A stretch of DNA of 64,000 nucleotides from Vicinamibacterales bacterium (GCA_036489235.1 DASXGC010000031.1:13-64012); one strand, 5' to 3'; shown: positions 26,764-63,409, counted from the first letter of the stretch. The notes: generated by a model from the sequence alone, not told the origin. Translations and numbers: made by a program.

Positions 26764-26798
26764 TAGCCATCAGCCATCAGCCATGAGCCATCAACCGC
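26764..26798 (-). repeat. RATGGCT heptamer array, 5 units (sense orientation on the minus strand)
   Basis: The plus strand reads 'tagccat cagccat cagccat gagccat caaccgc'. The array starts 4 nt after the lepA stop codon (26803-26805) in lepA orientation. Confidence 0.85.
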
Positions 26799-26802
26799 GG
26801 CC

Positions 26803-28611
26803 CTATTCACTATCGGTCCCCATTTTGAGCACGGCAAGAAACGCCTCCTGCGGGATCTGGACCCGGCCCACCTGCTTCATGCGCTTCTTGCCTTCTTTCT
26901 GTTTCTCGAGCAGCTTGCGCTTGCGCGAGATGTCGCCGCCGTAGCACTTGGCCAGCACGTTCTTGCGCATCGCCTTGACCGATTCGCGCGCGATGATGCG
27001 CCCGCCGATCGCCGCCTGGATCGCGATCTCGAACATCTGCCGCGGAATCAACTCGCGCATCTTCGCCGCCAGCATGCGGCCACGTTCGTAGGCCATGTCG
27101 CGGTGAACGATGATCGAGAGTGCGTCCACCGGATCGCCGTTGACCAGGATGTCGAGCTTGACCAGCGGAGACGGCCAGTAGCCGGTGACATGATAGTCGA
27201 GCGATGCGTAGCCGCGCGAGATGGTCTTGAGCTTGTCGTAGAAATCGATCACCACCTCGTTGAACGGCAGGTCGTAGGTGACCAGCACGCGGTCCGACGC
27301 GAGATACTCGAGCGTCTTCTGCACGCCGCGCTTGTCCTGACAGAGCTGCAGGATGCCGCCGACGTGTTCGGCCGGCGTCAGGATCATCGCGGTGATCACC
27401 GGCTCCTCGATCACCTTGATCCGCCCTGCATCCGGCATCTTTGCCGGGCTGTCGATCTCCTGCACCACATCGTCGCTGGTGGTCACGCGGTACAGCACGC
27501 CTGGCGCGGTGGTGACCAGGTCCATGTTGAACTCGCGCTCGAGCCGCTCCTGGACGATTTCCATGTGCAGCAGGCCGAGGAAGCCGCAGCGGAAACCGAA
27601 GCCGAGCGCCATCGAGGTCTCAGGCTCGTAGAAGAACGACGCGTCGTTGAGGCGCAGCTTTTCGAGCGCGTCGCGTAGCTCGGGATACTCGTGCCCCTCG
27701 ACCGGATAGAACCCGGCGAACACCATCGGCTTGAGCGGCTTGAACCCGGGAAACGGTTCGAGCGCCTGCCGGCCGGATTCGGTGATGGTGTCGCCGATTT
27801 TGGCGTCGCTGATCTTCTTGATGTTCGCGACCAGGAATCCGACTTCGCCGACGCCGAGCTCGTCGGCCGGAATCGCCTTCGGCGTGAAGATGCCAACTTG
27901 CAGCGACTCGTAGTCCTGGCCTTCAGCCATCAGCCGGATCTTCATTCCGGGCCGGATCACGCCGTCGATCACGCGCAGGACGATCACCACGCCGCGGTAG
28001 GGATCGAACCAGGAATCGAAGATCAGCGCCTTCAGCGGCGCGTCCGGATCACCGGCCGGCGGCGGCAGCCGCGCCACGATCGCTTCCAAAATCTCCGGAA
28101 CGCCGGTGCCGGCCTTGGCGCTGACCAGCAGCGCCGAATCGCCGTCGAGCCCGATGATCTCGGTGATCTGGCGCCGCGCTTCCTCGGGCTGGGCGCTCGG
28201 CAGATCGATCTTGTTGATGACCGGAATGATTTCGAGGTTGTTCTCGACCGCGAGGTAGGCGTTGGCGAGCGTCTGCGCTTCGACGCCCTGAGAGGCATCA
28301 ACCAGCAGCAGCGCGCCCTCGCAGGCAGCCAGGGACCGCGTCACCTCGTACGAGAAATCGACGTGCCCCGGCGTGTCGATCAGGTTCAGGACGTACTTCT
28401 GACCGTCCCTTCCCGTATAGTGCAGGCAGACCGGATGCGCCTTGATCGTGATGCCGCGTTCACGTTCGAGGTCCATCGCGTCGAGGACCTGCGCTTCCAT
28501 TTCGCGCGCCTGGAGCGCGCCGGTGACCTCGAGAAAACGGTCGGCCAGCGTCGACTTGCCGTGGTCGATGTGCGCGATGACCGAGAAGTTGCGGATGAAA
28601 CGGGCGTCCAT
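26803..28611 (-). CDS. lepA: Translation elongation factor 4
   Basis: '[20 protein letters not shown]', 'DTPGHVDF', 'NKIDL' and the LepA-specific C-terminal region match. Confidence 0.97.
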
Positions 28612-28698
28612 GAAGTGGGTGAGAGACTGATGATCGTAGCAGAGGACTCTTTCCGGATCCTCTTGACGGTTGACCTATTTAGGACTTAATATGACTAT

Positions 28699-29253
28699 AT
28701 GGCTCTTCGTGACCCGCTGACTGGCCTCCCGCCTCGCTCGCCGGACGGTTCTGCGGATTCCGAGAATGCCTTGCAGGCCGAATTGTCGGCGATGCGCGAT
28801 ATCGCCCTGGTCCTGGCTGAACTGGACGAAACGACCCGGGCCCGCGTGATCAAATGGGCGACCGAACGATTCGGCCGATCGCCGGCTGTCCCTACCCAGC
28901 CGCAGACTATCCCCGTCAACAGCGATCGCGCGGCAGTCACGGCGCCGATCGACCCGATTGACGCGCTCTCGGTCGACAGCCTCGACGATCTGTTCGACGA
29001 AGTCGCTCCGAAAGCGCCGCATCTCTCGTCGCTGGACGTGGACGATGCGATTGACGGTCCGGGCGAATCGGTAGCCGGAATGGTCCACGAGTTCGTCACC
29101 GAGTTTCAGGAAATCGTGCGGCAATGGAACGGCGCCTGCGACGAGGCCACGGCGCGGCCGGTCGCCGAGCCCGCGGCGGCGCCTGCCGCCGAGCCGCGCC
29201 TCTCGCTCGTCACCAAACGGCCTGGCGGTCAGCGGACATCCAGCGCCGTATAG
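28699..29253 (+). CDS. Hypothetical acidic, probably disordered protein
   Basis: ORF only, with no recognisable family. Codon pattern is plausible. It overlaps the convergent citrate synthase 3' end by 25 nt. Confidence 0.4.
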   Translation: MALRDPLTGLPPRSPDGSADSENALQAELSAMRDIALVLAELDETTRARVIKWATERFGRSPAVPTQPQTIPVNSDRAAVTAPIDPIDALSVDSLDDLFDEVAPKAPHLSSLDVDDAIDGPGESVAGMVHEFVTEFQEIVRQWNGACDEATARPVAEPAAAPAAEPRLSLVTKRPGGQRTSSAV

Positions 29254-62119: not shown

Positions 62120-62123
62120 GAGG

Positions 62124-62152
62124 ATGGTAAAGGACGGCCCACATGGTGTCAA
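62124..62152 (-). promoter_or_regulatory. Candidate sigma-70-type promoter of the dcw cluster (TTGACA-17-TACCAT)
   Basis: The minus sense reads 'TTGACAccatgtgggccgtccttTACCAT', with -35 at 62152-62147 and -10 at 62129-62124. The spacer is 17 nt, counted by hand. Confidence 0.5.
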
Positions 62153-62324
62153 CCGCAAAATCCTGCACCTCAGTAAGTTACGCCAAATTTTCGCCTTTTA
62201 ATCGCCAAGGGGTTTTGACCCACTTTTTGACCGCTCCGACCGTCCTGCGAACCGGTCGGTGTACGATGCCGCGTCGGACCGGTTCCGGGTCTTGCCCAAA
62301 CCGCGCCCTCAACCACAACGCCGC

Positions 62325-63362
62325 ATGAAAACCGTCCTCGTCTGCGAAGCACAGGTCCCGTTCGTCCAAGGCGGGGCTGAGCTGCTCGTGCGCGGCCTGG
62401 TCGGCCAGTTGCAAAAGCATGGCTACCGCGCCGACAAGGTCTCAGTTCCCTTCAAGTGGTATCCCAAGGACGAGCTGCTGACGAGCGCGGCGGCGTGGCG
62501 CATGATCGACCTGTCCGAATCGAACGGCGTGCGGATCGACGCCGTGATCGCAACGAAGTTCCCGACCTATTTCGTCCGCCACCCGCACAAAGTGACCTGG
62601 CTGTTCCATCACTACCGAGCGATTTACGACCTCTTCGGGACACCCTACAGCGAATTCGATCACACCGAACGCGACGTGCGCCTGCGCGACCGTCTGATCG
62701 CACTCGACAACGAAGTGCTTGGAGAATCGGCGCGCCTGTTCGCGATCGCTCGAAACACCGCGTCGCGGTTGCAGCGCTATAACGGTCTCACCGCCGAGAC
62801 GCTGTATCATCCACCGCCGCTCGCCGAACGCCTGCACGCGGGCCCGTTCGGCGACTACATGCTGTCGGTCGGTCGCCTCGAAGCCAACAAGCGCGTCGAT
62901 CTCATCATCCGTGCCCTCGTCCACGTGCCCACGCTACGGCTGGTAATCGTCGGCGAGGGGCCCCTCCGTGGGCAGCTCGAGAAAACCGCGGCAGAGCTCG
63001 GTGTCGCAGACCGCGTCAACTGGACCGGCCCGGTGGACGAGGAAACGCTCGTCTCTCTCTACGCCGGTGCTCTCGCCGTCGTGTTTCCTCCCTTCGACGA
63101 GGACTACGGCTACGTCACGCTCGAGGCGTTCCTCGCCCGCAAGCCGGTGGTCACCACCACCGATGCCGGCGGACCGCTCGAATTCGTCGAGCACGGAGTG
63201 ACCGGCCTGGTCTGCGAGCCGACGCCGCCGGCGATTGCCGATGCCATGACTCGCCTCCGCGGTGATCACGCACTCGCGCGCTCGCTCGGCGACGCCGGGT
63301 ACGATCGCGTACGACCGATCAGCTGGGAACATGCGGTGGACAGACTAATGGCCAATGGCTAA
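62325..63362 (+). CDS. Family-4 (GT-B, glycos_transf_1) glycosyltransferase
   Basis: 'GRLEANKRVDLII', 'LVIVGEGP' and the EX7E region 'FDEDYGYVTLEAF' match. The C-terminal ...LMANG-TAA is encoded by the heptamer array. Confidence 0.85.
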   Translation: MKTVLVCEAQVPFVQGGAELLVRGLVGQLQKHGYRADKVSVPFKWYPKDELLTSAAAWRMIDLSESNGVRIDAVIATKFPTYFVRHPHKVTWLFHHYRAIYDLFGTPYSEFDHTERDVRLRDRLIALDNEVLGESARLFAIARNTASRLQRYNGLTAETLYHPPPLAERLHAGPFGDYMLSVGRLEANKRVDLIIRALVHVPTLRLVIVGEGPLRGQLEKTAAELGVADRVNWTGPVDEETLVSLYAGALAVVFPPFDEDYGYVTLEAFLARKPVVTTTDAGGPLEFVEHGVTGLVCEPTPPAIADAMTRLRGDHALARSLGDAGYDRVRPISWEHAVDRLMANG

Positions 63363-63409
63363 TGGCTGATGGCTGATGGCTGATGGCTCAGGGCTAATGG
63401 CTGACGGCG
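63347..63409 (+). repeat. RATGGCT heptamer array, 9 units, spanning the GT4 stop and candidate GT2 starts
   Basis: 'aatggcc aatggct aatggct gatggct gatggct gatggct cagggct aatggct gacggcg'. There is no opposed arm. Confidence 0.85.

Follow-up and report, generated by a model that had tools for sequence, protein, structure and literature searches.

Heptamer repeat arrays at gene ends in a Vicinamibacterales contig: probably a slippage-driven, REPIN-like repeat family under purifying selection

Tandem arrays of a 7-nt unit, ATGGCTR (R, A or G), occur at five loci in the stretch of DNA analysed here, 64,000 nucleotides of Vicinamibacterales bacterium (GCA_036489235.1, DASXGC010000031.1:13-64012; hereafter the window). 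The source is a contig of a metagenome-assembled genome (MAG) from the Acidobacteriota, assembled from short reads. The neighbouring genes were confirmed by Pfam as LepA, signal peptidase S26 (Peptidase_S26), AIRC/LarB-like, MutS2 (MutS_V, SH3-like and Smr domains), MurD, FtsW and two glycosyltransferases, one GT4-type (Glycos_transf_1) and one belonging to Glycos_transf_2 (GT2). Tandem Repeats Finder and direct reading placed seven arrays at the five loci that an earlier note on this DNA had named (Table 1), three of them solitary (lepA-lepB, mutS2 and GT4-GT2) and four arranged as two opposed pairs (larB-mutS2 and murD-ftsW). The arrays consist of 4-10 head-to-tail units and are longer than expected by chance; over the whole window the two-unit pattern RATGGCTRATGGCT, with at most two mismatches, has 34 matches against 0.95 expected, and none of 100 shuffles scored as high.

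Table 1. Repeat arrays and other features of the window (positions counted from its first letter).
Feature	Position	Strand	Description
lepA-lepB array	26764-26798	- (sense)	Solitary ATGGCTR array, 4-5 units, between lepA stop (26803-26805) and lepB start (26692)
larB-mutS2 hairpin, left arm	34076-34123	+	Sense, G-rich arm; begins 14 nt past larB stop (34059-34061)
larB-mutS2 hairpin, right arm	34141-34168	-	YAGCCAT on the + strand
mutS2 array	36136-36205	- (sense)	Intragenic, about 10 units (first 2-3 degenerate), open orientation, inside the + strand mutS2 open reading frame (34225-36651)
murD-ftsW hairpin, other arm	52786-52828	+	TTTTT 7 nt beyond, on the murD strand
murD-ftsW hairpin, sense arm	52846-52873	-	Holds murD stop TAA (52858-52860); encodes tail MANG*
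GT4-GT2 array	63347-63409	+	ATGGCTR array, 9 units (8-9), bridging GT4 stop TAA (63360-63362) and likely GT2 start ATG (63397, in last unit)
8-mer hairpin	8505-8628		AGGATTTG / AAATCCTC opposed; -50.1 kcal/mol, z -6.0; layout like ATGGCTR pairs, other unit and period
GGTGCGA/GGTGCTT array	30396-30448	+	Heptamer array, 8 units, 28 nt upstream of citrate synthase start; no structure (z 0.02)
TPP riboswitch	11965-12062	-	Rfam, 67.9 bits
tRNA	40237-40309	+	Rfam, 68.6 bits

In the ATGGCTR orientation an array places an ATG and a stop codon TRA in every frame, and in the opposite orientation it is open and reads QPSAISH; this frame arithmetic of the earlier note is right. The note had further observed that all four sense arrays lie close to the stop codon of the upstream gene (lepA, larB, murD and GT4), and this geometry holds. 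The lepA stop is 4-11 nt from its array, and in MurD and the GT4 transferase the stop codon is a TAA within the array, both proteins ending, as had been claimed, in the array-encoded tail MANG*. At the GT4-GT2 junction the ATG in the final unit of the array opens the GT2 reading frame (MADGVNVAETSIVIPAFNEA). Two of the four cases follow automatically from the palindromic layout of the pairs, since this is identical on both strands and a gene arriving from either side meets the stop-bearing arm first.

The two opposed pairs are predicted to fold into very stable hairpins, at -66.9 kcal/mol (z -8.1) for larB-mutS2 (34075-34169) and -54.9 kcal/mol (z -7.1) for murD-ftsW, and the solitary arrays give no significant fold (z -0.96 for the lepA-lepB array folded alone, and -2.6). 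The paired arms are inverted copies, even in the order of their variant units; in the larB hairpin, the reverse complement of the right arm matches the left arm, including a variant ARGGCTA as second unit. When the window and other acidobacterial loci are taken together, 11 of 12 ATGGCTR pairs are sense-first, 5'-(ATGGCTR)n-loop-(YAGCCAT)n-3', often with GTC...GAC ends and with inner units that are degenerate in a similar way, and hairpins from differing loci and genomes have these ends and inner ATGGYY/GATGG motifs in common. When pairs of any unit are counted, the G-rich arm leads in 25 of 35.

For a wider sample, 185,579 species genomes were scanned for three tandem ATGGCTR units, which returned at least 120 loci in many phyla; the counts that follow refer to the matches listed, with genes called by a crude open reading frame (ORF) heuristic and a null of uniform placement within each spacer. 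Acidobacteriota, Planctomycetota, Cyanobacteria, Bacteroidota, Gemmatimonadota and Chloroflexota are all represented, and identical ATGGCTA arrays are present in many cyanobacteria. BLAST comparison of the window with the 120 array loci found no homology outside the arrays, and the loci are thus not orthologous. Nearly all arrays are intergenic (147/155). In co-directional spacers the sense orientation runs with the genes in 32 cases and against them in 16 (p = 0.03), and convergent spacers with arrays outnumber divergent ones by 30 to 8 (p = 0.0005). The earlier note had called for stop distances to be set against a position-shuffled null. An upstream stop is found no more than 15 nt from the sense side in 24 of 62 cases, where 9.2 would be expected (z 5.9), and no bias is seen for the antisense side (6 of 46, 5.8 expected) or for the side that faces a downstream start (5 of 40, 5.7 expected). 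The stop is contained in the array itself in 14 of the 24 stop-proximal cases; when these are left out the excess falls to 10 of 48 against 5.4 expected (z 2.1). The stop-proximity pattern is therefore real beyond the window, and it largely matches what is expected if an array may overlap a gene end only when its orientation provides a stop. In 422 non-seed units, conservation reaches at least 90% at positions 1, 2 and 6 and is lowest at the G of ATG (0.815). Purines make up 96% of position 7 (A 0.55, G 0.41), and either one preserves the stop TRA.

The one array inside a gene of the window lies in mutS2 and, as the earlier note had said, is in the stop-free orientation, but no other orientation is possible inside a gene, and all eight intragenic arrays in the wider sample are likewise open and encode (S)HQPSAIS inside proteins. 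In MutS2 the array encodes approximately NHQPSSLSHQPSAISSQPSALSH, residues ~638-660, in the linker that joins the coiled coil to the SH3-like domain (665-704), with the Smr domain at 732-807. In most of 120 MutS2 orthologs this position is taken by peptides that derive from arrays of related units (NPQSAIR, NQQSAIS, HQPSAIS). The unit of this linker drifts in concert across the orthologs, and a relative at 90% identity already has a switched unit.

Comparison of orthologous sites, another test the earlier note had proposed, revealed both presence/absence and unit-number polymorphism (L numbers below are our handles for the loci compared). The closest comparison is a sister genome of ~95% nucleotide identity (GCA_036497895.1, SMAG_U5226; loci L208-L210, from one assembly with L007 and L095, where further ATGGCTR loci are found). 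The GT4-GT2 array has 4 units there against 8-9 in the window, with conserved flanks, and the array upstream of citrate synthase has 17 against 8. In the murD hairpin of the sister genome the left arm is altered and the right arm kept; in the larB hairpin the left arm has been swapped for unrelated sequence and the hairpin is largely destroyed, the flanking genes being unchanged. Arrays thus gain and lose 7-nt units fast, and hairpin arms are remodelled or replaced fast.

At murD, L207 is an empty site. It lacks the hairpin, and its MurD ends in RVFVL*, coded by sequence that in the window lies after the hairpin, which makes the element an indel of ~88 nt, 4-5 codons ahead of the native stop. 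The C-terminus is MANG or MADG in about 45 of 120 MurD orthologs. In more distant relatives (L205) the GT4 tail is ATGGCTGAAGGCTGA, that is MAEG*, made up of two proto-units, and GT2 follows 4 nt later. Between the murD hairpin and ftsW (52578-52770, - strand) a stretch of ~130-150 nt (GGTGAACAGTCGTCAGTCGG...CCGACTGATGACTGTTGACC) is near-identical in five relatives, including the hairpin-less L207. It folds into a long stem in which five pairs have compensatory changes, has no Rfam match, and could represent a leader or small RNA of the cell-division gene cluster that has so far not been described.

The lepA-lepB array is missing from L121, L122 and L126, where the two genes abut or overlap (ATGA overlap). 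In L121 one ATGGCTAA gives both the lepB ATG and the lepA TAA, in L123 there are three units, the last holding the lepB ATG, and L149 has an AGGGCTC array of a family shared with its own larB spacer. The lepA genes of L121 (3941-4827) and L122 (4031-5178) are called truncated, with an uncalled gap of ~0.9-1.1 kb that may reflect a frameshift or an assembly problem.

In most of ~40 relatives the larB-mutS2 spacer has a hairpin that begins at or over the larB stop and is built from other units, such as GGGATTA, GGGGACT, AGGGCTT, GGAGGTT, GGCTTTA or 8-mers; several relatives (L133, L139, L163) have no hairpin in this spacer. GGGGACT, the STRR1 unit, is found in the spacer of L151. The element is thus present or absent at orthologous sites, and the unit at one site varies between genomes. 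Directly after the larB hairpin of the window a 16-nt unit (CCGTAGTGSCATCGAG) occurs twice (34169-34200), which is not seen in the sister genome. Between the variable hairpin and mutS2, ~15-20 nt before the ATG, GTACGGTAGAAT is conserved in the window (34201-34224) and at the equivalent position of ~25 relatives (L121-L168), which suggests a promoter with a very short leader.

The abundance of such arrays is not restricted to ATGGCTR. Approximately 700 kb of related loci contain 173 arrays of period 7 or 8, about one per 4 kb; many units are used, and which family predominates depends on the genome. By period, the tandem repeats in the retrieved loci number 326 (7 nt), 37 (6 nt) and 59 (8 nt), and 123 distinct heptamer units occur in the array-bearing loci. 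The idea that ATGGCTR is specially conserved across phyla was rejected, as permuted heptamers are about as common: in viral contigs, tandem triplets of three composition-matched permuted heptamers form 34, 15 and 22 stretches, and those of ATGGCTR 22. Given these frequencies and the 123 units, the cross-phylum spread reflects the general abundance of heptamer arrays and not conservation of ATGGCTR, a unit that is probably not special. The 8-mer hairpin and the array upstream of citrate synthase had been missed in the earlier note; the unit family of the latter is also used by L123 in its larB spacer. Very large repeat-built hairpins or arrays are present in some relatives (L162, 1929-2166; L129, 56-153; L141, 5878-6029), for example ATTGGCG x15 opposed by AATCGCC x15, and L141 has three ATTGCTG hairpins inside 6 kb. 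The window also contains a 40-nt unit in two copies of 93% identity (15033-15116), each with a small palindrome (GGGGCCGACATAAAGTCGGCCCC) and a GTAG motif that recall repetitive extragenic palindromic (REP) elements.

Taken together, we consider it probable that the arrays belong to a slippage-driven heptamer repeat family resembling REP doublets that form hairpins (REPINs), and that their strand and position pattern arises from purifying selection. The ATGGCTR arrays would be one family of heptanucleotide simple-sequence repeats (SSRs), 'long SSRs' that resemble short tandemly repeated repetitive (STRR) sequences; the class is very abundant in this genome. A typical element would read 5'-GTC(ATGGCTR)n - degenerate inner units - loop - (YAGCCAT)nGAC-3' and would lie right behind a gene or within its last codons, solitary arrays being half-elements or local expansions. 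Units would be gained and lost by replication slippage, and the likeness of the arms may be maintained through intrastrand template switching or inverted duplication. Further arrays could nucleate on native ATGGCTRA start/stop junctions, where a Met-Ala start overlies TAA or TGA, or might arrive as copies like those of REPINs or miniature inverted-repeat transposable elements (MITEs); candidate nucleation sites are the single ATGGCTAA of L121, the three units of L123 and the GT4 tail ATGGCTGAAGGCTGA of the relatives. As the ATGGCTR orientation stops every frame within 21 nt, an array may abut or overwrite the last codons of a gene and alter its length in steps that shift the frame, at the cost of only a 4-5 residue tail swap (MANG*). 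The YAGCCAT orientation, open in all frames, would survive only in tolerant inter-domain linkers such as that of MutS2. On this account a dedicated translational function is not required, and the apparent translation awareness mostly reflects which insertions a gene can survive. The suggestion of a selfish element with a preference for 3' ends, which the earlier note had listed among several, is in keeping with the empty site, the varying unit numbers and the turnover described above.

Several points weigh against this explanation. Arrays persist at the same site across relatives of only ~80% protein identity, as seen for the MurD tails and the larB hairpins; an SSR that is purely neutral would not be expected to last as long, a hint that the presence of the arrays is selected. 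That position 7 is restricted to purines could come from a stop-codon constraint or from a sequence-specific partner. The polarity of the pairs, with the G-rich arm first (25/35) and, for ATGGCTR, the sense arm first (11/12), is left without explanation. No transposase was found, although no search was directed at one, and no convincing target-site duplication was seen at the empty and filled murD sites. In addition, the multi-phylum gene calls (120 loci listed) come from the crude ORF heuristic.

The paired arrays could, with the same origin, be functional hairpins at gene 3' ends, acting as terminators or attenuators, as 3'-exonuclease barriers that stabilise mRNA, or as insulators, their construction from tandem repeats then being just the route by which they evolve; we regard this as possible but rather doubtful. 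Terminator, mRNA-stabiliser or insulator roles have likewise been proposed for REP elements and bacterial interspersed mosaic elements (BIMEs). A hairpin role had been raised in the earlier note and agrees with the fold z-scores of -7 to -8 of the paired arrays, and the great stability extends to the 8-mer hairpin (-66.9, -54.9 and -50.1 kcal/mol, z -8.1 to -6.0). The hairpins stand right behind stops, the larB spacer of most relatives keeps one despite differing units, that of the window lies just upstream of the conserved promoter-like sequence before mutS2, and array-bearing spacers are more often convergent than divergent. A T-run follows the murD hairpins of the window, L204, L205, L206 and L208, in the window as TTTTT, which lies 7 nt beyond the long stem or, if a 5-bp sub-stem is considered, immediately behind it. 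However, with murD as the exception, no T-run was found after the opposed pairs in general, whatever their unit, the larB hairpin included. Nor is there a strand-specific advantage in folding: for 24 orthologous hairpins the sense strand is the stabler in 14 and the antisense strand in 10, with a mean difference of -1.7 kcal/mol and no G.U excess, and an RNA function can therefore not be claimed from sequence. The solitary arrays are unstructured, the sister genome has largely lost its larB hairpin next to unchanged genes, and the hairpin is absent from the larB-mutS2 spacer of L133, L139 and L163 and from murD of L207. At gathering threshold Rfam matched only the tRNA and the TPP riboswitch in the whole window and none of the arrays, and around the murD hairpin it gave only spurious sub-threshold miRNA matches. 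Within the slippage-driven explanation the paired form may also work as a hairpin, in RNA or in DNA, at the 3' ends of genes.

It is unlikely that the heptamer arrays, in place of being passive products of slippage, are maintained by or serve a conserved process with a 7-nt register. Such a process might involve a sequence-tolerant factor with affinity for hairpins or single strands at gene 3' ends, or a frame-independent stop-restart cassette selected at operon junctions. If true, it would cover the persistence at orthologous sites over ~20% protein divergence in the face of unit turnover, the purines at position 7, the tendency to G-rich-first arms and the strong excess of period 7.

More improbable still is that the sense arrays are selected translational devices, namely frame-independent stop-restart cassettes (UGAUG or UAAUG every 7 nt) that combine a read-through guard with translational coupling of neighbouring genes, the translation-aware reading of the earlier note. 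An upstream stop and a downstream ATG do fall within one array at GT4-GT2 (window, L208) and at lepA-lepB (L123, L121), the TRA positions are the best conserved of the unit with only A or G at position 7, and the sense side is near stops far above chance. Most arrays nevertheless stop short of the downstream start (the 5 of 40 within 15 nt are no more than expected), and the same junctions in relatives work with an ATGA overlap or a 4-nt gap. Other families at the same sites have no stops (GGGGACT) or have them both ways (GGGATTA). A rule that the first arm carries the stops was rejected, since stops are more numerous in the left arm of 15 pairs and in the right arm of 11, with 9 ties, and first arms are thus in general not stop-enriched. 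As most stop-proximal arrays contain the stop, the excess that is left without them is only that of z 2.1. The read-through guard put forward in the earlier note is unneeded for the pattern, and nothing tested supports one.

For the mutS2 array, a contingency locus is conceivable, in which a one-unit change would shift the frame and switch the C-terminal SH3/Smr module (phase variation), as any single 7-nt unit change frameshifts a coding region and unit numbers do vary between close relatives. This is very improbable: the array length is unchanged and the frame intact in all four close relatives (at least 90% identity, 808-residue MutS2), the 120 orthologs are full length with an intact Smr domain, the remaining arrays sit at 3' ends, and the mutS2 array is imperfect, hence slippage is suppressed. 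That the arrays are assembly or sequencing artefacts, to which repeats in a short-read MAG are prone, has almost nothing in its favour, as the same arrays occur at orthologous positions in independent JGI, ENA and NCBI assemblies, are translated in frame within MutS2 of many relatives and leave consistent tails in dozens of MurD orthologs.

Among known systems, the STRR sequences of heterocystous cyanobacteria, reportedly described by Mazel in 1990, are said to have the units CCCCAGT, TTGGTCA and CAACAGT. Like these, the arrays studied here are tandem heptamers at many dispersed and mostly intergenic loci, with several unit families per genome and an over-representation of period 7; the host is a member of the Acidobacteriota and not a heterocystous cyanobacterium, and the dominant unit is ATGGCTR. 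The STRR analogy of the earlier note is thus apt, but the contrast it drew with cyanobacteria is weaker, as ATGGCTA arrays exist in cyanobacteria and GGGGACT in the larB spacer of a relative. Similarities with REP, REPIN and BIME sequences are the dispersed extragenic palindromes with two inverted arms and a loop, often directly behind stops, and the genome-specific families whose presence or absence varies between relatives. In contrast, REP arms are unique sequences of 20-40 nt and ATGGCTR arms are tandem 7-mers. REPs are tied to REP-associated tyrosine transposases (RAYTs; IS200/IS605-like); of the source genome of the ATGGCTR arrays, the analysis covered one 64-kb contig.

The earlier note had held that the strand-asymmetric behaviour of the arrays falls outside known feature classes, but heptanucleotide SSRs have been described (PMC4692102) and the same logic applies to TAACTGA repeats (PMC4679880). 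Heptanucleotide repeats are the most abundant class of long SSRs in many prokaryotes, with polymerase slippage as the proposed cause (Mrázek 2007, as cited in PMC4679880 and PMC4692102). As in that class, the present arrays have tandem 7-nt units beyond chance and unit-number polymorphism between close relatives. The TAACTGA arrays of several phyla (marine Beggiatoaceae, cyanobacteria, Bacteroidetes) stop all three frames in the forward orientation, overlapping the upstream ORF by up to 18 nt, and their reverse repeats translate (LSVISYQ) at protein peripheries, including the end of MurG (MacGregor 2015, PMC4679880). Both repeats are tandem 7-mers, mainly intergenic and with the unit in several phyla, that stop all frames and overlap ORF ends in one direction and are translatable in the other, at peripheries or linkers (LSVISYQ there, QPSAISH here). 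TAACTGA sets are short (2-6 copies), lie chiefly just upstream of starts and include one reported inverted pair (PMC4679880), whereas ATGGCTR is another unit in an acidobacterial host for which hairpin pairs directly behind stops are typical. Xanthomonas has ~185 intergenic GGGAATC arrays per genome, often as convergent inverted pairs; related species have arrays at the same intergenic sites, with great variation in length and sequence (Rehm 2015, PMC4692102). The GGGAATC and GGGGAYT repeats of Xanthomonas and Nostoc resemble the ATGGCTR arrays in the hundreds of intergenic heptamer arrays in a genome, in their frequent convergent inverted pairs able to form stem-loops and in the occupied but variable orthologous sites; they differ in being G-tract units, proposed to form G-quadruplexes and with no stop asymmetry described (PMC4692102), while ATGGCTR has no G-tract. 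A full-text literature search for the ATGGCTR array sequence returned primers only, and the unit and its acidobacterial setting appear to be undescribed so far. The class of heptamer repeats is already described, with its function unexplained, and nothing here is categorically new.

Bacteria have been known to contain heptamer tandem repeats since 1990, many genomes having more of them than expected, and both their origin (why 7?) and their function are still not established. The Vicinamibacterales, a widespread soil lineage, are unusually rich in heptamer arrays. For annotation it matters that the arrays create C-terminal tails (MANG*), spurious start codons and repeat-encoded linkers. The comparative material that this lineage offers, with differing units, empty sites and unit changes at 95% identity, could separate the contributions of slippage, dispersal and selection.

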